Shown here: positions 14,162 to 37,042 of the stretch, piece after piece
How the letters are laid out: every line of letters starts with the position of its first letter
Numbering within the stretch: the stretch's first letter is position 1
Assembly (NCBI GenBank): GCA_019057385.1
Contig: JAHQJS010000004.1
Location: 884,727 to 948,726 of the forward strand
Length of the DNA: 64,000 nt
Source: Candidatus Borrarchaeum weybense
Lineage (GTDB): Archaea; Asgardarchaeota; Sifarchaeia; Borrarchaeales; Borrarchaeaceae
Direction: 5' to 3'
The notes under the pieces: generated by a model
The model's input: only the letters and a program-made list of their open reading frames with translations
The model's database searches: none
Told to the model about the DNA's origin: nothing
Translations under genes and position numbers: made by a program

Positions 14162-15553
14162 GTGAACTACCCCACCCTGACGGATGGAGCTTCCTGCGAG
14201 TCCTCCGAACCATATCCACGAATAGGACTGGGTACTTTCGTTTTACCTTTGGCTGTGTGTCGCAGATTATCAAGAAACACTTGATAGCCCGTCCACTTGG
14301 CATTCTGTGATAGGAAACGTTTCATAAGCACCACACAACTATTTTTGTCTCTGGCAATCACGTTACCACACTCACAGTTCATAACTCGTTCCCACAACGG
14401 CATATAATGGAGTTTACCACACATATAACACTCTCTGGAGGTATTGCGTTCGTCAAATTCTATTAGTCTTTTACCTACTCGTTTCGATTTGTAGGTTAGA
14501 AACTGTACGAACCGCCCCAGCGTACCCGTGCTCTGTGTAGCGCGGTTTAACCCCGATCTCATAAAATTTGGCACCTTCGTTGACTGTGCCATGGCTTTGA
14601 CCTGCAGTTCACCCACGATAAGCGTATTCGCCTTGGTGTTGTTCACTACCTTCGTGCTGAGTTTGTGCTGGAAATCCTTTAGTTGATCATCACGTTTCCG
14701 CTCGTACTTGCGTTTGATACGGTTGAAGAACTTCCACTTGTTGCTGAATTTCTTGCACCTATCCCGCCGTGCTTGTATCTTTGCGATTTTTTGATTCCAG
14801 TATTTATCGGGACGCTGGTTGTTCACCACCAAGAATTTCCCCTGAGAATTGACAGCCGTAATGATATGGGTAATTCCCAGATCAATGGCCTGATACCGTC
14901 CGTTATCCATAAAGAGCGGTTCTTCCATCTCGTACGTGATAGTCACAAAATACCGCTTGTTCTGCTCAGAAATGGCGACTTGTTTTACCTTCTTATCATC
15001 AAAAAAGAATTTCGCAGGGATGGCAAACTCCAAAGGTAGATCATTGTAGTTATGGGAAAAGGAGACTTTTCCGTGTTCTAACTTGAACCCCGACTGGTTA
15101 TAAACCATCGTAGTGAAATACTGCTTGCCTTTGAATCGCGGGAGTCTAGCATCGGCGTGTCCATTTTTTCGCAGGGCAAAGAACGACTCATAATCGGCGG
15201 CTAACGTCCTCAAAACATACTGTAAGACCTTCGAATATACCCAGCTATATTCCGGGTAGTGCTTTTTAATTATTGGCAGGTCGTTTTGCTGTTTTCGATA
15301 AGTCACGCCCTTAATGCCGTGTCTATAGGCGTCCCTTCGCTCGGCAAGGGCAAAATTATAGATGAGTCTGCACTTCTCCGAGAGTTTCCAAAGCACTTCT
15401 TCCTGTTCTAGTGTCGGAAAGATCCTAATTTTCTGTGTCAGTCTCATGGGCTTCACGCAGACTCTGGTATCAGTATTTCTACCCCAAAAAACTATATAAA
15501 ACTAGTGGCTTTCATCCCCCCAGCAGTCGGAAGGGGACTTCCCGCTGAACTAA
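14162..15553 (-). mobile_element. IS200/IS605-family (IS1341-like, tnpB-only) element
   Basis: Left end follows TTTAA with a GAAG-TCCCC..GGGGGGA hairpin. Right end GAAGCTCCATCCGTCAGGGTGGGGTAGTTCAC overlaps the tnpB stop. No tnpA. Confidence 0.9.
14167..15456 (-). CDS. tnpB: RNA-guided endonuclease TnpB
   Basis: N-terminal 'KIRIFPT..Q', RuvC-I AIDLG, IVGEL, DERNTS, Zn finger CYMC/CECG and RuvC-III RDKN. Confidence 0.95.
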   Translation of the reverse strand: MKPMRLTQKIRIFPTLEQEEVLWKLSEKCRLIYNFALAERRDAYRHGIKGVTYRKQQNDLPIIKKHYPEYSWVYSKVLQYVLRTLAADYESFFALRKNGHADARLPRFKGKQYFTTMVYNQSGFKLEHGKVSFSHNYNDLPLEFAIPAKFFFDDKKVKQVAISEQNKRYFVTITYEMEEPLFMDNGRYQAIDLGITHIITAVNSQGKFLVVNNQRPDKYWNQKIAKIQARRDRCKKFSNKWKFFNRIKRKYERKRDDQLKDFQHKLSTKVVNNTKANTLIVGELQVKAMAQSTKVPNFMRSGLNRATQSTGTLGRFVQFLTYKSKRVGKRLIEFDERNTSRECYMCGKLHYMPLWERVMNCECGNVIARDKNSCVVLMKRFLSQNAKWTGYQVFLDNLRHTAKGKTKVPSPIRGYGSEDSQEAPSVRVG

Positions 15554-17416: not shown

Positions 17417-18727
17417 TTGGTGGGATTAATGAAAGAAATATTCCCAGATTATTACAGTGTTTTACTATATGGTCCTCCTGGCGTTGGCAAATCGGAGTAT
17501 ATCTTTGATTTAGTAGAATATTACCTAAAACATAATAAGAAAGTGATTTATATCACCACATCAAAAAGCCCAGAGCAGCTTATCGAATACGCGAAAAAAC
17601 GTAATCTTGATATCACGAAATATGAAAATAAAACACTTGTTTTTATTGACTGTTACTCATGGTCTGTTAGTAAAGAAGAGAAAAGACTCTCAGTTGATCA
17701 TCCAGCAAATCTAAATAAAATAAGCATTAATTTAGTAAAAGCTGTAAATACATTGGGGATGCCAGTTAGAATAATTTTTGATTCATTATCTACACTTTTT
17801 CTTCATAGCCAAGCAGACGTCATTCTGAAGTTTGTTCAAACCATCACATCTCGAATTAAATCAGAATATGGCTTCATCCTTCTTTCAATGCAAAAGGGGA
17901 TGCATAATCAAGAACATGTCACCACAGTGTATTCTATCATGGATGGCGTCATAGAAATGGATTTCGAGGAAGAAACACTCGGAAAACATTTAAGAATTCA
18001 TCATCTAGACGGCTTTCCACATGAATCCATTTGGATACCGTACAAGGTAACCCCTCATGGGACTGAGATAAATCCTGAAAACCTTCAAAAGATTGTTTCT
18101 TATAACGCAAAAACAGCACAACAATCAGCAAGATTCATTAAAAAAGCTGAAAAGTTGCTTTCAGATATTTTTGCGAAAGCTATGGTTGATAATCTTATTA
18201 AATCATATCTTACTAAGTTAGGAATAACACGTGACACTATTGAACAAAATCATGCCAAAAAAATTACGGAAATGATCCACAAAGATATAATTAAGTTTAC
18301 TGGAAAAGATCCTGGCAATTTGGAGAAAGTGTTATTAGGTGATTTTATTAAACGTAAAAAGATTCTTGTTGTAGAAGATAATGAAGATTTTCGAGTTGCC
18401 ATTAAAGAAATCCTAAAACTAAAGGATTATCAAGTTGTTACAGCAGTAAATGGTGTAGAAGCTATAGACTCCGCCGAAAGAGAGCATCCAGATCTGATTT
18501 TAATGGATATTGGTCTCCCTGTGCTTGATGGATATGAAGCCACACGCCGTTTGAAATCTAAGGAAACAACTAAAGATATTCCAATAGTGGCATTAACCTC
18601 ATTTGTTCTCAAAGGGGATGATGAAAAAGCATTAGCTGCTGGATGTGATGGCTATATTCCTAAACCAATCGATATGGGCGGATTTCCACAAAAGGTAGAG
18701 CGTTTTTTCGAAACTGGCGTTCTTTGA
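17417..18727 (+). CDS. KaiC/RAD55-like ATPase fused to a C-terminal receiver (REC) domain
   Basis: GPPGVGKS and IFDSLS in the ATPase; REC motifs ILVVEDN, PDLILMDIGLP, LTS and KP. Confidence 0.85.
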   Translation: MVGLMKEIFPDYYSVLLYGPPGVGKSEYIFDLVEYYLKHNKKVIYITTSKSPEQLIEYAKKRNLDITKYENKTLVFIDCYSWSVSKEEKRLSVDHPANLNKISINLVKAVNTLGMPVRIIFDSLSTLFLHSQADVILKFVQTITSRIKSEYGFILLSMQKGMHNQEHVTTVYSIMDGVIEMDFEEETLGKHLRIHHLDGFPHESIWIPYKVTPHGTEINPENLQKIVSYNAKTAQQSARFIKKAEKLLSDIFAKAMVDNLIKSYLTKLGITRDTIEQNHAKKITEMIHKDIIKFTGKDPGNLEKVLLGDFIKRKKILVVEDNEDFRVAIKEILKLKDYQVVTAVNGVEAIDSAEREHPDLILMDIGLPVLDGYEATRRLKSKETTKDIPIVALTSFVLKGDDEKALAAGCDGYIPKPIDMGGFPQKVERFFETGVL

Positions 18728-18728
18728 G

Positions 18729-18850
18729 TCACTTTTTTCGTCCCTGAGCCTGTCATTCATCCCTGTCTTCGAAGGCGTGGGACCTCTCGGGTTTTGTCTC
18801 ATGCACAAGAACGTGTGCACCGCGTGGTGCGAAGAACATTCCGCCTTGTA
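18729..18850 (-). ncRNA. Structured repeat copy 1 (candidate ncRNA of the RAMP/Cas1 locus)
   Basis: Gapless match to copy 2 (100 of 122 identical by manual count). Covarying stems; TTATAA at 18871-18876. Confidence 0.7.
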
Positions 18851-18930
18851 GTTAAAACATTTGCTGGTTATTATAAGAGTCATGAGCATGATTTCGAGCA
18901 TTCCTATACCTCTAGTATCCGTGTTTCTTT

Positions 18931-19221
18931 TTAAGAGAGTCCACAAAATTTGTTTACGTTATCCACAAATTCTTGATCAAAGGGTTTCTCAATTAACTTC
19001 TTTTTCTTTTGATGCGTAAGTTTTTTTATTTCGCGTTCTCTTTGAATTGCCTGACGTTGGGTTCGGAATTTTTCTACATAGTACAATTTCTTGACTTTGT
19101 ATCTTTTAAGATATCTGGCGCCTTTCCCATCTAAATGGAGTTTGAGGCGCTCGAAGATATCTTTAGTATAACCTGTGTAGAACGTTTTATTTTTACAGAG
19201 AATTACGTAGACGTAAAACAC
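18931..19221 (-). CDS. GIY-YIG nuclease (UPF0213-like), about 96 aa
   Basis: FYVYVILC...FYTGYT.D...RL..H..GKGARY...E. A GTG start at 19221 follows a GGTGA RBS; the longer ORF-track start reads through repeat copy 2. Confidence 0.88.
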   Translation of the reverse strand: MFYVYVILCKNKTFYTGYTKDIFERLKLHLDGKGARYLKRYKVKKLYYVEKFRTQRQAIQREREIKKLTHQKKKKLIEKPFDQEFVDNVNKFCGLS

Positions 19222-19228
19222 TGGGGTA

Positions 19229-19350
19229 TCACCTTTTTCGTCCTTATACCTGTCATTCTTAGCCATCATCTGAGGCGTGGGACCTCTCAGGTTTAGTCTC
19301 ATGCGCAAGAACGTGTTTTCCGCGTAGTGCGAAAAACATTCCGTCTTGTA
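19229..19350 (-). ncRNA. Structured repeat copy 2
   Basis: Offset exactly 500 bp from copy 1; TTATAA at 19371-19376, the same spacing as in copy 1. Confidence 0.7.
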
Positions 19351-19426
19351 ACCTGTATAGCAGTTAGTGATTATAAAATGTGATATCATATCCCTCTGCA
19401 TTATTTTGACCTCGATTTAAATATCT

Positions 19427-20236
19427 CTAAATACTTGCTAAATCGTTTATGTAAAGATTAACCATTAAGAGTAAGTGATTTTTCAGCGAGGAAAAGCCAT
19501 AACTGAGAGCCTCATTAATTTTCTGCAATTCTTGAGACTTACGAATATAGGTATAAAGTGCAAAGAGAGAATGTTGCCGCTTCTCAATGTCACTCACTAG
19601 CGCTTGAAAATCAATTTTTTCTATTTCCGAAATGCGATAGCGTGATGTCGCTTTCCAACGAAATTTTCGAGATATACTGGAAGACAACCTGTCATAATAT
19701 TGGAGAGTTGACAATAAAGGTACCTCTGTGTCATCAATCTCGTAGTTATGATGATTTTCAACTAATTGATGGATATATTCATCACTGATAGAAACCTCAT
19801 TATAGATTTTGCTGTTATGTCTCTCGGTATGGACGAAATCATGTAGAAGCATGGCAATCAGGAGTTTTTGTTGTGTGTCTGAGAGTTTAGGGAGCATTTT
19901 TCTGATGGTGATTTTTCTCGAGACGAAGAGAGGCTTCTTGTGGAGTTTTTTCACTTCTTTCCATTGTATGCGTCCCATGCCTTCATGGGTATAGCGTCCG
20001 AGGCGATCCAGAGAGATTGCAGTTTCAAGTTTATGTTCTGGAACAATAAACTCGATATTACCATACCAAGCCCTGAAGGTCATAGGTGCCCGTCTTTCGC
20101 CTTTTGTAAGTTTACCGAAGGCTCTAGGTCGCCCATGAATTGTTATAACTCCCAGACCAGTAATTCCAAATCTTCTTCGCTTAGAAACTACAGGCGTTTT
20201 CGTTATTCCTGTTAATTTAACCCAGTTTTTTACCAT
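19427..20236 (-). CDS. Minimal RAMP (Cas5-like) domain fused to a Cas10-type permuted HD nuclease
   Basis: N-terminal strand 'KLTGITKTPV' and G-rich loop LGRYTHEGMGRI, then LLHDF..H, HH, YDRLSS and a C-terminal SLKNHL. Confidence 0.75.
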   Translation of the reverse strand: MVKNWVKLTGITKTPVVSKRRRFGITGLGVITIHGRPRAFGKLTKGERRAPMTFRAWYGNIEFIVPEHKLETAISLDRLGRYTHEGMGRIQWKEVKKLHKKPLFVSRKITIRKMLPKLSDTQQKLLIAMLLHDFVHTERHNSKIYNEVSISDEYIHQLVENHHNYEIDDTEVPLLSTLQYYDRLSSSISRKFRWKATSRYRISEIEKIDFQALVSDIEKRQHSLFALYTYIRKSQELQKINEALSYGFSSLKNHLLLMVNLYINDLASI

Positions 20237-20258
20237 TTCTAATCCTCTTTATAGTGTT

Positions 20259-20287
20259 TATCCCGTTAAAAATGATATAACGGGATA
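20259..20287. promoter_or_regulatory. Perfect 10-bp inverted repeat TATCCCGTTA-N9-TAACGGGATA
   Basis: Lies between repeat copy 3 and the RBS of the RAMP-HD gene. Could be a terminator, processing hairpin or operator. Confidence 0.55.
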
Positions 20288-20331
20288 TCTAAACGTATCG
20301 GTTTCTTTACCTTTTGTTCGTAAATTGGATA

Positions 20332-20455
20332 TCACTTTTATCGTCCCGTTGCCTGTCATCCGTCCCCATCAGTACTGGAGGCGTGGGACCTCTCAGATGG
20401 TTCAGTCTCATGCGCAAGAACGTGCCACCCGCGATACGCAAGCAGCAGACCATCA
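20332..20455 (-). ncRNA. Structured repeat copy 3 (most divergent)
   Basis: Shares CACGTTCTTGCGCATGAGAC, GAGAGGTCCCACGCCT, ATGACAGG, GGACGA and GTGA; the 5' hairpin has a different sequence but stays paired. Confidence 0.65.
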
Positions 20456-20496
20456 GGGATGAGAAAAAAGAAATAAAATGAAATAGTGCCGATTCC

Positions 20497-21300
20497 TTAA
20501 GCATTTGAAGCCCTTCGGGTATGTAATGAGACTACAGTTTCCCTCCAATCCTCGATGTTATCAAGCGCAATTGACTCAGCTTTAGTTTTTTCAGAGAACT
20601 TATAGATACCATCATTTCGCTCTAACTTTTTCTCAATGTCAACGTTTTGGAGATCAAAGTCCAAAAGTTTAACCTGTCCATAGCCTGCATTCTTACCGCC
20701 ACCAAGAGTTTCGATATAGAGCAATGACTCAATGAGAAATTTAATTTCCTCATCAGTTAATTGTGTCACATCGATAGAGAAGGTGAAGTAGCCGCTGAAA
20801 TAACTTTGTCGAAAATCCTGAATTGGAACGCCATCAAAACTTAAGGCTATCCTTGTTTCGCTGGCGATGTGAACCTTCTGCACCGCTACATTCGTCTCAT
20901 AGTCTTTATGAGAGATTGAGGTAATGGGATCTGCCGAGACAGAGATACGAGACTCTTTGTGAAAACTGCCGAAGATACGTTGTAGCATGCAAGGGGGATC
21001 ACAACTACCCAGTACATGAAATCCCACAGGCATCAATTTCGTACCATCCTTGAGTTCGGTTTTTTCACTGGTATGGCAAACTTCAATCCCACAATCATAC
21101 GCAAGTTTCATAGCTGCATGTCGTAGCATGCCACGCAGACCCTTGATGTAGTACACTTTTGTATTGAAGACCTTATCTCCGTTTACATAAGGAATTTCGC
21201 CGAGAAGTAACATCGTAGAATTCTTTTGGATAGAGGCATTTAGAGGCTTGGCAATCGGGGTATAGGCACGAACTACAATCTGTTTTTTAGTGGTTTTCAT
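20497..21300 (-). CDS. cas7: Cas7-group (Csm3-like) RAMP protein
   Basis: 'IVVRAYTPI', 'IKGLRGMLRH', Cys/His cluster with 'C..RIFGS', 'ETRIAL' thumb and G-rich loop LGGGKNAGYGQV. Confidence 0.85.
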   Translation of the reverse strand: MKTTKKQIVVRAYTPIAKPLNASIQKNSTMLLLGEIPYVNGDKVFNTKVYYIKGLRGMLRHAAMKLAYDCGIEVCHTSEKTELKDGTKLMPVGFHVLGSCDPPCMLQRIFGSFHKESRISVSADPITSISHKDYETNVAVQKVHIASETRIALSFDGVPIQDFRQSYFSGYFTFSIDVTQLTDEEIKFLIESLLYIETLGGGKNAGYGQVKLLDFDLQNVDIEKKLERNDGIYKFSEKTKAESIALDNIEDWRETVVSLHTRRASNA

Positions 21301-21345
21301 TTCTCTAACCTCGTTGATTTTTCAAATATACTTTTTGCAACCAGA

Positions 21346-21365
21346 TATATAAACCTATCGCTTTC
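21346..21365 (-). promoter_or_regulatory. Putative BRE/TATA promoter of cas7
   Basis: Minus strand AAAGCGATAGG-TTTATATA, about 45 nt upstream of the ATG. Confidence 0.5.
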
Positions 21366-21625
21366 TATACCTTTTATTAGTATAATGGAGAATTAAATTA
21401 ACTCCTTTTAAAATTTAAAGGATTTTATCGGCTTTATTTAATAACGTTGAGTTATGACGCCAAAAATGACCGTTCATTCAACTTGCTATCATTAAGAATA
21501 ATTATTCAATAAAACAAAGATATTATCCTTTTAGTAAAAACAAGCATTTTGTAAAGGTTCATAAGTTAAAAATTAATGGTCTAAATTAATTTATGTTAAA
21601 AAATTGCATAATCATCATATATATT

Positions 21626-24600
21626 TTAGGTTAAGAGTCGAGTCATAGGCACAGGGGGCCCCTTGCCTATCGATTTACAAAATCGCTCGATGCTTCGGAA
21701 CATCTCAAAGATCTCCTGAAACTGTCCCTCATCTGATAAATAGACAAAGGGGATAAATGGAGTTTCGTTTAACAAAAATCCGGCAAGATAACTGGCACAA
21801 CGATTCATAGCTTTCCTTAAAGTCATATAATTGCGATCATAATAGACGACCTCATCCATCAGTTCTTGAAACAATAACCACATCTTTTCCTCAGCACTTT
21901 CTTTTAATGTATACACTTCTTCGCCACGGGGAGTGTAAGATAACTTGAAATCATCCTTGGTGATATCCCCCTTTTTACATGCTTTTACATAAGCGTACCT
22001 GAACATGGGAAGGAACATTTCACGGAAATCAAGCACCGCACCAATAGAGATTTTTTGTCCTGCAGCTCTCCGATAATGGAGTACAAGTTCACCCGGAAAC
22101 CACGAAAAACCGACATCCCATAACACCTTTTGACATTTTTTCAATAGTTGTCTCTTTAGGGCATTAATTCCTGCACTAAAGGGAGAACGCCCTTTGGCTT
22201 CTCCCATAAATAGCGAGGACGCTACATAACGATCATAGGTACGACTGCGGCATTGCATCGCAGTATCTTCTAAGATGAGTTTCCACACCTGCCAAACCAA
22301 TCGCTCTCCATCTGCTTCATAACTGAGTAAGTTTTCTCGACTACCCGTCCAGTGGATAACTGTATGGGCGACAACGTTCATTTGACCTGCGAATAGCCTA
22401 TTTACATCCGCAGATTCTAACATACCATCCTTTTCAGCTTGCAGTGTAAGGAGTGCATTGCTTGCTCGTTTGCTCATATCTATTTGCCATGCCAATAATA
22501 GGCCATCTTCCTTTTCCCTGATGAAGTCAGCTCTTGCCTTTAATTTCTCAGTTAAATTCTCATCTTGAGAGATCTTATATCCTTCAAACGGGACACGAAT
22601 TGAGTCGTCTCGCTCCTCGCCATACACAATTCGTCCTTTAAGTTTTATACGCATAAATTCGGAAAGACCTACATCGCCTATTACTTTTATCCGCTCTATA
22701 GCATCCAACCGATGGCTACGTGAAAAGCCTTCCTTCGATATATAATGAAGCATATGTCGATTAATCGTGAGTTCATCCCCTTCCCTCACAGTCAGCCATA
22801 CATATTGTCGTTGAAGCTCACCCTCTGTCTTTGCAACCACTTTCACAGGTTTAATAGACCTTTTTAAGATGATCTCAAGTGCCTCTTGAAGAAGATCTTT
22901 CGTTCCTGGCTCGACCTTAATCCTACCATCATGAAGCAAAAAATACAGCGAATTACACTGAGGACATAGTGTGTACTGAGCATATGACATCGGTTCCTTT
23001 AATACTGCCTTTTTACAGATGCGACAGATTGGAGTTCCTTGTGTTGTTCGTTCAAAATCCCTAAAAGTCCTGCTTTTTCTTTTTCGAGAGGAATTATGAA
23101 ATCGACAGGCAGCGGTACAGAGCGTGATATCGGTAGTCATGGCACGGTGTCCAAGCAGTCTATTATATTCTGCTGATAATTCACATAAAAATCGTTGATC
23201 CACTCGTTCCTTTTCATAGTCATTTGGACAGGGCATTCTAAAGACACAGGAACCACAGGTTTTTAACATATGTTCTGGAATAGCGGTTTCTTCGCTACAT
23301 ATTCGTTTCACAGGACGTCCCACACCCTTCCCTCTCGGAAAACGTACCACTTTCCCTTGTACGTCTAAGTCGAGCACATTCCAAATAACTGTGGTAAGAC
23401 CGACTGAGTGTTCATAGTGAGCAGAGATCCGTTTATGAAGGTCTTCATAGGTAGTGATTGTTCCGTCCTTTAGTGTCGAACTAATAACGTCTTGGATAGT
23501 TTTGTGTGGTGATGGTTTTTTTTGAGGGTAAAATCGCACTTTTGATCCCCGTTCGAGTTCACTTTTTGTTGTAAGTAACTCACAGATGTGCTCTGCAGCG
23601 TCAACCAGTAATGGATTCTCCATTGTTACAAAGGCATGAACCGCCTCAGCGATCCAGGCTGCGGTTCTTCTGCTTTCTTCGGCATCTCCTAGCCACATAT
23701 TCACCTCATTTGCCGCTGTTTCGAGCTCGTAATCCTCGATTAAAGCTTTTATAAAATAGGTGTAATGTTTGGTGCTATACTTTCCATTGATGTTGTAAAC
23801 AGTCTCTGCGATTATGTCAGTAATCGCCCAATAGGCAGCTTCATTCATGGAAAATCGCTGTTCCTGAAAATAACAGCGTATATTGTTTCCAACAACCGCT
23901 GGCAGTAGGAACTGGCTTGCCCACCTTCCGATAGTCGTCGCTTTATATTTGCCACCCTTCTGTTCTACCAATTTACAGGATATGAGTTCGCGGAGATACA
24001 ATTTCACATCATTTTTTAACTGCTTCTCATATCGCTCAAGTTCTTCAATTTTATGCTCTTTTAAAAGATCGAGAAAAAACAAAATGGGTTTCCTTAGCTT
24101 GATGGAATCCTCATAGTGTTTCAGAATACGATCATAAACACAGTCAAAAAATCCAATTACAAACTGTTTATACTGCTCGATTTCTAGATCGTCGTAGTTG
24201 TCATTATCGTTCAAAAGCGAAAGAAGTTTGTTACTGTTCCGTTTGGAAACCTTAAAACTTTGATGCTGATACAGTTCGGTCTTGATTACTTCTGTATACT
24301 TCCTGATCAGTGCTTTGTGCTCGTAATACATGTAAAATCGTTGCAGATGCCTGATGAGCACACCACTAGACACAGCACCGCGTGACACTCTATACAGAAT
24401 AATATCCTTTAAATTGTGCTTTGAATGGCTCCTCAAACGTTCTTCCTCGAACTCTATTCCTTTTTCAGTGATTTTGATCCTTTTTTCTCCATAAAATGTT
24501 TCTATGCCGCTTTTAATGATCAGGTTGGCATATCCGATTTCGTAAAATTCTGGTCGTGCCGTCCTACCAACCATTGATTCCAAATCCTGTGGACTATAAA

Positions 24601-25597
24601 TCGTCGCATCGGCATCGGCGATAATCACCCGTAACACCGGAGCACTGATCCCCTCTTTATATTCAGTTGTAAAAAGCACGTTAATTTTGCCTTCTTGAAA
24701 GGCTGTCATCCGTTTTTGTCGTTCAACAGCACTTAACCCAGCATGACTGAAGGAAACTGTAATATCAATTCCCTCTTCCTCGAATTTGCAACTCAATTCA
24801 GCAGCCCTAAGCTCTGCCTTTTTCCTTGAGGCACAGAACACCAGTACACATCTTATATCAGTCTGTTGGGTACTCACTTCCATCGCGTATGTACCCTTAA
24901 CTAATTGTGCAATGACGTACATTTGTTCATCGTCATCGGAGACCTTGATAATAGGTTCAATCACAATTTCTGAATGACGTTCATCAGTCTCAATGATCTC
25001 AGCCCCAAGCCAGTCTGCTACCTCACCAATATCCTTGACCATCGCAGTCAGGTAAAGTATTTGAGGTCGGGATCGCAACCACGATTGCGTTTTGACGATA
25101 ACATCCTCCAAACGACTCCCACGCTGCATTTTGCCTACGTAATGCATCTCATCAATAACAACAAGCCCTAATTTTCTCAATAATGAGTATTCATAATTCC
25201 TCATTAACATGCCGTTAAAGGATTCAAAGGTAGTAACAATGATTTCCGCCTTCTTTAATACACGATGGGGTGGCTTCTCCTCTCCCGTCACTTTGACGAT
25301 GCGATACTTTCTGCGGTAGCGTGGCAGGCTGTCAAACCATGCCACAAGACGGTTGTAGGTCTGATCGATCAGCCGTCGATTCGGCACCAAAAACACGCAT
25401 CTTTGTTTTATCCCGAGTATAAAAGTGGCACATATAAGGGGGATGAGTGTCTTACCTGCGCCGGTTGGGGCTTTCACCAGCACATCCTTTTCTTTAATAA
25501 AGGCGGCAATAGCCTTCTCCTGAAATTCAAAGAGTTGTTGATATCCTGCCCGCTTGAGTCGTTCCCATACCGAATACCAATCCATGATGCGTGGCAT
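21626..25597 (-). CDS. Hel308/Ski2-like SF2 helicase + wHTH + Zn fingers + divergent Cas1 (aCas1-like) fusion
   Basis: Q motif FEFQ, APTGAGKT, DEMH, SHAGLS and GRTARP; winged helix; CGSC, CRIC and CPQC. The C-terminal ~390 aa has the Cas1 pattern LLSYE..., VLH..., LDFREMF..., IT.DDF, TLR.AM...A..LA.FL....F.PF. Confidence 0.8.
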   Translation of the reverse strand: MPRIMDWYSVWERLKRAGYQQLFEFQEKAIAAFIKEKDVLVKAPTGAGKTLIPLICATFILGIKQRCVFLVPNRRLIDQTYNRLVAWFDSLPRYRRKYRIVKVTGEEKPPHRVLKKAEIIVTTFESFNGMLMRNYEYSLLRKLGLVVIDEMHYVGKMQRGSRLEDVIVKTQSWLRSRPQILYLTAMVKDIGEVADWLGAEIIETDERHSEIVIEPIIKVSDDDEQMYVIAQLVKGTYAMEVSTQQTDIRCVLVFCASRKKAELRAAELSCKFEEEGIDITVSFSHAGLSAVERQKRMTAFQEGKINVLFTTEYKEGISAPVLRVIIADADATIYSPQDLESMVGRTARPEFYEIGYANLIIKSGIETFYGEKRIKITEKGIEFEEERLRSHSKHNLKDIILYRVSRGAVSSGVLIRHLQRFYMYYEHKALIRKYTEVIKTELYQHQSFKVSKRNSNKLLSLLNDNDNYDDLEIEQYKQFVIGFFDCVYDRILKHYEDSIKLRKPILFFLDLLKEHKIEELERYEKQLKNDVKLYLRELISCKLVEQKGGKYKATTIGRWASQFLLPAVVGNNIRCYFQEQRFSMNEAAYWAITDIIAETVYNINGKYSTKHYTYFIKALIEDYELETAANEVNMWLGDAEESRRTAAWIAEAVHAFVTMENPLLVDAAEHICELLTTKSELERGSKVRFYPQKKPSPHKTIQDVISSTLKDGTITTYEDLHKRISAHYEHSVGLTTVIWNVLDLDVQGKVVRFPRGKGVGRPVKRICSEETAIPEHMLKTCGSCVFRMPCPNDYEKERVDQRFLCELSAEYNRLLGHRAMTTDITLCTAACRFHNSSRKRKSRTFRDFERTTQGTPICRICKKAVLKEPMSYAQYTLCPQCNSLYFLLHDGRIKVEPGTKDLLQEALEIILKRSIKPVKVVAKTEGELQRQYVWLTVREGDELTINRHMLHYISKEGFSRSHRLDAIERIKVIGDVGLSEFMRIKLKGRIVYGEERDDSIRVPFEGYKISQDENLTEKLKARADFIREKEDGLLLAWQIDMSKRASNALLTLQAEKDGMLESADVNRLFAGQMNVVAHTVIHWTGSRENLLSYEADGERLVWQVWKLILEDTAMQCRSRTYDRYVASSLFMGEAKGRSPFSAGINALKRQLLKKCQKVLWDVGFSWFPGELVLHYRRAAGQKISIGAVLDFREMFLPMFRYAYVKACKKGDITKDDFKLSYTPRGEEVYTLKESAEEKMWLLFQELMDEVVYYDRNYMTLRKAMNRCASYLAGFLLNETPFIPFVYLSDEGQFQEIFEMFRSIERFCKSIGKGPPVPMTRLLT

Positions 25598-36665: not shown

Positions 36666-37042
36666 TGGATTGCCTCAAGGAGACTCCCGCCCTAAAGAGT
36701 GGAGAGGAATTAAGGTCGGGTTTTGCTCACACAACCCTTTCTGCGAGCACAGGGGTTGGTGTACCCGACCTTGGGCGGTGTTTTAATGATGGGTACTCTC
36801 AAGTCCCATCCCTCCCAACACCAAGGGAGTCGGTCCACTTCGAGGTTGTTGTAAAGGCTTACCCGTCCGTAGCACCGTTCCTACCCCTCAGAACTTTTAA
36901 CCAGCGGACGACAGAGCAAGGGGCTAGTGGAGCACCCCAGGGTGTCATAACCTCAACAACTGCTGCATCTCTCTCGTAAGGAGAGACGCCCTCTAATCAA
37001 CTAATACCCTTCGGGTATACCCTTTAGGGTGGGGTAGTTGAC
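36666..37042 (-). ncRNA. Standalone HEARO / IscB-type omegaRNA within a non-autonomous element
   Basis: Starts GTCAACTACCCCACCCTAAAGG and contains GTTGATTAGAGG, ACACCCTGGGGTGCTCCACTAGCCCCTTGCTCTGT and AACAACCTCGAAG. Terminal hairpin is followed by ATGAA. No iscB ORF. Confidence 0.85.

Follow-up and report, generated by a model that had tools for sequence, protein, structure and literature searches.

Candidate TATA boxes ahead of a structured RNA element repeated beside Cas-like genes in an Asgard archaeon

In the 64,000-nt stretch of Candidatus Borrarchaeum weybense DNA analysed here (the window), two copies of a repeated element lie on the minus strand among Cas-like genes, and each is preceded by the hexamer TTATAA at the same distance. 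The question raised by this arrangement is whether the hexamers are TATA boxes from which each copy is transcribed on its own, or whether they have been kept for another reason. The repeat search recovered copies 1 and 2 (18729-18850 and 19229-19350) as an ungapped 122-nt pair with 82% identity and an offset of 500 nt. In the next 20 nt (18851-18870 compared with 19351-19370) only 7 of 20 positions are identical, and TTATAA is then found at 18871-18876 and 19371-19376, so that in each copy the hexamer begins 26 nt before the conserved block. This geometry had been described in the initial annotation and is confirmed here. What had been missed is that the ungapped register extends further upstream to an ATG (18901-18899 and 19401-19399), which has a GAGGT motif 6-7 nt ahead of it. 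On the minus strand, the TATA-like sequence is TCTTATAAT upstream of copy 1 (18870-18878, including TTATAA at 18876-18871) and TTTTATAAT upstream of copy 2 (19370-19378). The 5' edge of each conserved block is formed by the strongly conserved columns of TACAAG (18845-18850 and 19345-19350), of which the A (18849 and 19349) is the predicted transcription start.

The minus-strand order around the copies is helicase-Cas1, Cas7-like RAMP, copy 3, a 269-aa protein, copy 2, GIY-YIG nuclease and copy 1. The helicase-Cas1 gene (21626-25597) encodes a 1323-aa fusion of a Hel308-like superfamily-2 helicase (Pfam DEAD, 8.7e-26, and Helicase_C) to a C-terminal Cas1-like domain, for which positions 91-288 of the 289 in the PADLOC Cas1 profile matched residues 1028-1276 (E 9.2e-7); a PDB sequence search of the Cas1-like region returned nothing relevant. 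The Cas7-like RAMP of 267 aa (20497-21300) was identified by Pfam RAMPs (4.1e-9) and PADLOC Csm3 (4.3e-10). The 269-aa protein (19427-20236) had no match in Pfam, NCBIfam or PADLOC; it has a probable N-terminal RAMP part (Cas5/Cas6-like) and a C-terminal part with HD-like motifs (LLHD, NHH), and is referred to below as Cas5-like. Residues 1-106 of its AlphaFold model matched RAMP subunits of type IV, I and III complexes with middling Z scores of 5-6.7, the matches being of the Cas5/Csm4/Cmr3/Cas6 type, while beyond residue 106 the model is poor (pLDDT 53) and the only sequence matches of the HD-like part are HD-superfamily phosphodiesterases at E 0.15.

Approximately 10 paralogous, array-less, ARAMP-like modules with helicase-Cas1, Cas7-like RAMP and Cas5-like/HD genes are present in this genome. 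The 269-aa gene has at least 8 paralogs, each flanked by the element, and in full-length modules the element is located both before and after this gene, with the two copies about 1.1 kb apart. The paralogous modules lie on contigs C3, C4, C5 and C6 (for example C4:417439-423882 and 747822-754222), and the identity between paralogs is 63-88% for the Cas7-like, 60-78% for the Cas5-like and only 32-49% for the helicase-Cas1 genes. This suggests that the RAMP-plus-RNA part may have been exchanged or homogenised separately from the helicase-Cas1 gene. A whole-genome k-mer scan located a single CRISPR array in the genome, at C4:148433-151100, which is approximately 735 kb away from the window. It consists of about 50 repeats, each 37 nt long, and no similarity was seen between its repeat ATTTCAATCCTTATTACTTAAGGAATTCTTTTGCAAC and the element. 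Elsewhere on the minus strand of the window, a full-length HEARO (IscB omegaRNA) match of 99.8 bits was found at 36829-37042, and a TnpB-like ORF (Pfam OrfB_IS605, Cas12f1-like TNB domain) at 14167-15456.

The repeated element itself is about 125-140 nt long. The covariance model matched copy 1 at 18721-18860 (core 18729-18850; G000:C4:903447-903586; 125 bits), copy 2 at 19221-19360 (core 19229-19350; 135 bits) and copy 3, between the Cas7-like and Cas5-like/HD genes, at 20324-20469 (core 20332-20455; 130 bits), all on the minus strand. In the whole genome (4.18 Mb, 37% G+C), 28 copies were found by nhmmer and 25 by the covariance model. The same model detected the family in all 6 genomes examined of one Asgard class and in none of the 145 other Asgard genomes sampled. 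The named relatives carrying the element are Asgard MAGs, namely Ca. Borrarchaeum yapensis, Ca. Sifarchaeum subterraneum and MAGs labelled Borrarchaeota and Promethearchaeota. No Rfam 15 family matched the element at the gathering score, and a search of 18600-20600 with E up to 10 gave only chance snoRNA-like matches.

Across 77 distinct copies, 92.8% of cells are paired, compared with 41-54% when the partners are slid, and 236 cells are doubly changed, compared with 86 in shuffles; none of 500 shuffles reached the observed values. Double changes were seen in 20 of the 27 consensus pairs. The clearest example is hairpin P1, a 10-bp stem at 18814-18838 in copy 1 and 19314-19338 in copy 2, in which compensatory changes affect 9 of 10 pairs, and a second hairpin (GAGG/CCUC) also covaries. 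The alignment used here was fitted to the model; the covariation of P1 is visible in a MAFFT alignment too. Single-sequence folding of the window copies was no better than that of shuffles (z -2.3 to +0.7), and the structure is clear only from covariation. As U-G pairs are frequent, the RNA was assigned to the strand of the genes. At three orthologous loci, the synonymous-site divergence is 0.06-0.10 in the element and 0.34-0.56 in the adjacent GIY-YIG gene, so that synonymous sites are approximately five times more conserved in the element. This low divergence, together with the lack of a codon signal in the element, argues for an RNA that is structured and conserved at the nucleotide level.

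Two types of copy can be told apart by position. U-type copies, such as copy 3, are placed after the Cas7-like and before the Cas5-like gene, with the T-rich flank TTTTTTCTCATC, whereas D-type copies, such as copies 1 and 2, follow the Cas5-like gene or are solitary and begin with TACAAG. It had been proposed that copy 3 has a T-rich 5' flank only; this holds for copy 3 and for every copy between these two genes. Copy 3 is more divergent than copies 1 and 2, and flank comparison showed no TATA at -27. Copy 1 is the last copy in this order, is not followed by a gene, and adjoins the 3' end of a convergent KaiC-receiver gene. The variable 3' tails were considered as guides and this was rejected, as they have no matches elsewhere in the genome: for the 90-nt 3' tails and one inter-copy spacer, no second genome match went beyond 17-mers (E ~0.02).

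The arrangement differs in some relatives. A divergent module in the sister genome (L058:1292-3029, contig C9 of G050) has three consecutive U-like copies, about 120 and 87 nt apart, ahead of the Cas5-like gene, which is followed by a fourth copy; the result is a short array-like arrangement. In the second family of the class (G009; L040, L045, L050, L064-L078), about 32 copies were found, and the conserved unit reaches about 130 nt further upstream. Of the 20 loci examined there, a RAMP gene fragment lies within 1.5 kb at only one, L035, whose copy is g1-like. The element may be an independently spreading repeat in G009.

Because copies 1 and 2 are homologous, the motif that they share reflects conservation and not independent occurrence, and the wider family has to be considered. 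The initial annotation had expected homologs to keep the TATA spacing, and this was the case: five genomes supplied at least 13 non-identical D-type copies with TTTATA exactly at -27, equivalent to TTATAA at -26, as counted from the T of TACAAG. Four copies of this genome make up a second subgroup, in which GTGTTTATATAG is found at -34/-33. The motif is absent from four D-type paralogs of this genome (C4:523147, 754091 and 1004293; C6:564241), and among the 32 non-U copies the TATA columns carry 0.6-0.7 bit and are no better conserved than columns -14 and -9.

The simplest alternative is that the shared TTATAA has no function and is a leftover similarity of two old duplicates in an AT-rich genome. 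With 37% G+C, TATA-like hexamers are common in the flanks and other TATA-like strings are present nearby. Set against this, the expectation for TTATAA or TTTATA in upstream regions of this genome is only about 0.0015 per position, and the motif is found at the same position in five genomes, in flanks that have otherwise diverged considerably. For the core motif GAGAGGTCCCACGCC, 3 occurrences were counted in the window, where 0.02 would be expected. A functionless motif is therefore very improbable.

Archaeal promoters bound by TBP and TFB have an A/T-rich TATA element centred approximately 26-27 nt upstream of the transcription start, and a purine-rich BRE directly upstream of the TATA box. 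Counted from the A of TACAAG, TTTATA occupies -28 to -23 (TTTATA(A) to -22), with a pyrimidine-purine step at -1/+1. The geometry of copies 1 and 2 thus fits that of an archaeal TATA box with a putative start at this A. The 7 nt upstream of the TATA are ATCACAT in copy 2 and CATGACT in copy 1, and a loose CATAAT recurs in homologs; a purine-rich BRE is not evident there. Upstream of 1,935 long ORFs of this genome, counting hexamers by position revealed no sharp TATA peak, and the upstream regions of tRNAs, which were tried as a source of a host promoter consensus, were mostly within tRNA clusters or masked. A sigma-70 promoter scan of the region was set aside, as the model is not applicable to archaea.

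A separate promoter is not needed for the expression of the copies, because there is no terminator after the Cas5-like gene: hairpin terminators were absent from 18400-21700, and hence from the interval between this gene and copies 1 and 2. It is possible, then, that a single operon transcript runs from helicase-Cas1 to copy 1, with TTATAA kept as Phe/Leu-Ile codons of a short translated frame, encoding either a small protein or a translated leader, which is read through the element. The tight gene spacing on this strand and the missing terminator are in keeping with such a transcript. An RBS-like GAGGT (18912-18908) precedes the ATG of copy 1 by 6 nt (18899-18912 in all) and opens a short frame through copy 1. 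In copy 2, GAGGT (19413-19409) lies 7 nt before the ATG (19399-19413) and opens a frame of 156 codons which runs through copy 2 into the GIY-YIG gene. The TATA sequences correspond to codons 9-11 of these frames, CTT ATA ATA in copy 1 and TTT ATA ATC in copy 2.

The initial annotation had regarded the sequence between the TATA and the conserved block as free. This description does not hold for the canonical D-type copies, where the interval is gap-free and shows codon-like substitutions in the GAGGT-led ATG frame. In these copies the TATA corresponds to codons 9-10 of the frame, whose first 17 codons specify a hydrophobic peptide such as MLQIMFIVFIFAGKY. In 10 of 12 canonical copies, and in both window copies, the ATG at -51 has a GAGGT 6-8 nt ahead of it, and the 51 nt (17 codons) from ATG to TACAAG contain no indels in canonical copies. 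The pN/pS ratio is 0.45-0.5 in the ATG frame only, compared with 0.8-1.4 in the other frames, and this holds when the TATA codons are left out; the differences at the three codon positions are 0.49/0.31/0.56. The four paralogs without TATA keep the hydrophobic peptide through synonymous or conservative changes (TTC CTC, TTC ATA).

However, the coding signal is limited to the first 17 codons of canonical copies. No codon signature was found in the element itself, where synonymous sites are nearly invariant, and in the 3' part of the frame family members are put out of register with one another by single-nucleotide indels; a conserved stop is lacking. In copy 1 the frame continues for 93 nt into the neighbouring gene in antisense orientation. 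The hydrophobic stretch is short, at about 12 residues, and a Pfam search of the short-frame peptides matched no family. The TTTATATAG subgroup has no such frame. Selection on fusion proteins was also considered, since the element frame continues in-frame into the downstream gene in 5 of 6 cases, and was rejected; the continuation results from the fixed GGTGAT-N6-start spacing, and the element part is without coding signal.

In tandem units at two loci, L023 (19 nt between covariance-model matches) and L027 (27 nt), the motif and its spacing are kept without an upstream ATG, and the spacers consist of essentially just the TATA region. The same was seen in a solo copy (C4:1262892) without an upstream frame start, and in L037, where a 2-nt insertion breaks the frame. 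In three orthologous GIY-YIG-linked loci, which correspond to copy 2, the 48-nt flank is 56-77% identical and evolves with a pN/pS of 0.74-1.11; the first 17 codons therefore evolve neutrally and show no coding signal, while TTTATAA is invariant. In copy 2 orthologs the TATA is thus a conserved island within a neutrally evolving flank, which supports a promoter. On these substitution patterns, copy 2 is clearly better explained by a promoter than by codons. The case for a promoter at copy 1 appears weaker than that at copy 2, because its flank resembles that of the canonical copies, whose short frame is under some constraint. Both signals, promoter and short frame, appear to be real, in different subsets of the family. 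An explanation of TTATAA by codons and an operon transcript alone is somewhat doubtful for the window copies.

Taken as a whole, from sequence features, positional conservation, RNA covariation and substitution patterns, we infer that the two TTATAA boxes may be functional archaeal promoters with starts near 18849 and 19349, and we give this a probability of about one half. TBP and TFB would bind TTATAA/TTTATAA 26-27 nt upstream of the conserved block and transcription would start at approximately the A of TACAAG on the minus strand. The resulting RNA would begin with a conserved single-stranded UACAAGRCGG, followed by the covarying hairpin P1 and then by a domain closed by a long-range helix. 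These promoters would lie inside a longer minus-strand gene string, and as this string has no terminator the elements are probably transcribed by read-through as well. In canonical copies, the promoter would be overlapped by the GAGGT-led short frame.

The transcript from copy 2 would not be a free small RNA. Copy 2 had been proposed to be a separate small-RNA gene; instead it forms the 5' leader of the GIY-YIG nuclease gene (18931-19233 on the minus strand with its Shine-Dalgarno sequence; GTG at 19221-19219, stop at 18933-18931; Pfam GIY-YIG 1.3e-15), and its RNA would accordingly be the leader of the nuclease mRNA. The Shine-Dalgarno sequence GGTGAT (19233-19228) is the 3' end of copy 2 and lies 6 nt before the GTG at 19221. 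The GIY-YIG gene has a pN/pS of 0.13-0.25 in comparison with its orthologs in two other genomes. D-type units also directly precede unrelated genes, those for ribosomal protein S19e and acyl-CoA dehydrogenase, with the arrangement GGTGAT-N6-ATG. In the first case (L027:1179-1493, G031), a tandem of a U-type and a D-type copy is found without a RAMP gene directly before the S19e gene, and in the second (L043:341-1640, G050) a D-type copy is directly before the acyl-CoA dehydrogenase gene. Such placement before unrelated genes is what would be expected if D-type copies are portable promoter-plus-leader units.

Comparison with the sister genome G050 gave two further observations at this locus. 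The region corresponding to window 18721-18928, which is the 208-nt unit of copy 1 (GAGGT, ATG, TATA and element), is absent from G050 (L054:1201-1237), where a 37-nt hairpin and T-run is found instead between convergent response-regulator and GIY-YIG genes; by this comparison, copy 1 is a unit inserted specifically in the present genome. Window 19433-25546 is also precisely absent from L054. This 6.1-kb module comprises the Cas5-like/HD gene, the U copy, the Cas7-like gene and helicase-Cas1 without its first 17 codons, and in L054 these 17 codons are joined to the copy 2 flank, with no direct repeats or target duplication at the junction. The lack of the 6.1-kb module looks like the result of a clean deletion or excision.

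The repeats could also work chiefly as DNA, namely as long direct repeats at which the helicase-Cas1 fusion recombines or integrates, with short or gene-sized spacers between them in a cassette array and the TATA flank merely copied along. A Cas1 is encoded in the module, copies are separated by anything from 19 nt to about 1.1 kb, a GIY-YIG gene sits between two copies, and both the 208-nt unit and the 6.1-kb module are precisely present or absent between sister genomes. On the other hand, the indel junctions have neither target-site duplications nor terminal repeats, and the orientation of the element is always that of the genes. Many pairs are U-G, and their counterparts in the opposite strand would be C-A mismatches; this favours an RNA transcribed from the gene strand. 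In addition, among the 20 element loci examined in the class's second family (G009), the single locus near a RAMP gene fragment noted above is the only one, and none is next to a Cas1 homolog. A role mainly as recombination sites is improbable.

If the promoters are real, they would represent a portable regulatory element, consisting of a promoter and a structured leader, in the archaeal lineage closest to eukaryotes. If instead the motif consists only of codons of a short frame, it would be an ordinary operon feature, and the RNA family would still be of interest. The element is an obvious candidate for the RNA component of ARAMP/HRAMP systems, and the start position would tell which RNA to express or pull down. 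It could be the missing RNA partner of ARAMP, on which the Cas7-like and Cas5-like/HD proteins assemble instead of on a crRNA, with the roughly 10 modules controlling or cleaving transcripts that bear the leader; this is speculative and rather unlikely as it stands. Each module would then encode one operon copy (U-type) and one self-promoted copy (D-type), and promoter-plus-element units would have spread as leaders of nuclease and housekeeping genes (S19e, acyl-CoA dehydrogenase). In this reading the RAMP proteins would bind the RNA, and the modules would form a CRISPR-derived system which reads a fixed RNA structure and not a variable guide.

ARAMP systems derive from type III and have no array; they combine proteins similar to Cas5 and Cas7 with a distinct Cas1 and various nucleases (PMC8730458, PMC12669027). 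Together with HRAMP, they are found in Asgard archaea and haloarchaea, and their mechanism is described as enigmatic, with no RNA partner described in these reviews (PMC8730458, PMC12669027). The present modules resemble ARAMP in their Cas7-like RAMP, putative Cas5-like RAMP, divergent Cas1, nucleases (HD-like and GIY-YIG), array-less locus and Asgard host. They differ from ARAMP/HRAMP in that a structured RNA element of 125-140 nt brackets the Cas5-like gene, Cas1 is fused to a Hel308-like helicase and about 10 module copies are present per genome.

Small structured RNA genes with their own promoters, tracrRNA and scaRNA, are located beside cas genes and act with Cas proteins. Non-CRISPR RNAs are also encoded within cas loci by the cre genes (PMC8730458). 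Like tracrRNA, scaRNA, CreA and CreT, the element is a non-CRISPR RNA encoded in a Cas locus and is a candidate for having its own promoter. Unlike them, it has no repeat or anti-repeat complementarity, is much longer, is dispersed in dozens of copies and doubles as an mRNA leader. The omegaRNA/HEARO and TnpB reRNA families, which guide the nucleases of mobile elements, are similar in being structured scaffold RNAs next to their nuclease with many copies per genome, whereas the neighbours of the present element are RAMPs and not IscB or TnpB, it has no Rfam match and its 3' tails are not evident guides.

The Correia elements of Neisseria are short multi-copy elements upstream of unrelated genes, to which they supply a promoter and leader RNA structure. 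The present element differs from these in having no terminal inverted repeats or target duplications, in its covarying multi-helix fold and in its tight link to Cas-like genes. With CRISPR arrays it shares direct repeats in one orientation beside cas-like genes, with variable sequence between them, and a repeat that contains a hairpin. However, the repeat is 122-140 nt and not 25-40 nt, the spacers range from 19 nt to a whole gene (about 1 kb), and there are 2-4 copies per locus, with many copies solitary. Promoters in front of RNA genes are ordinary; what is of interest here is an undescribed structured RNA family on both sides of the Cas5-like gene of ARAMP-like modules.
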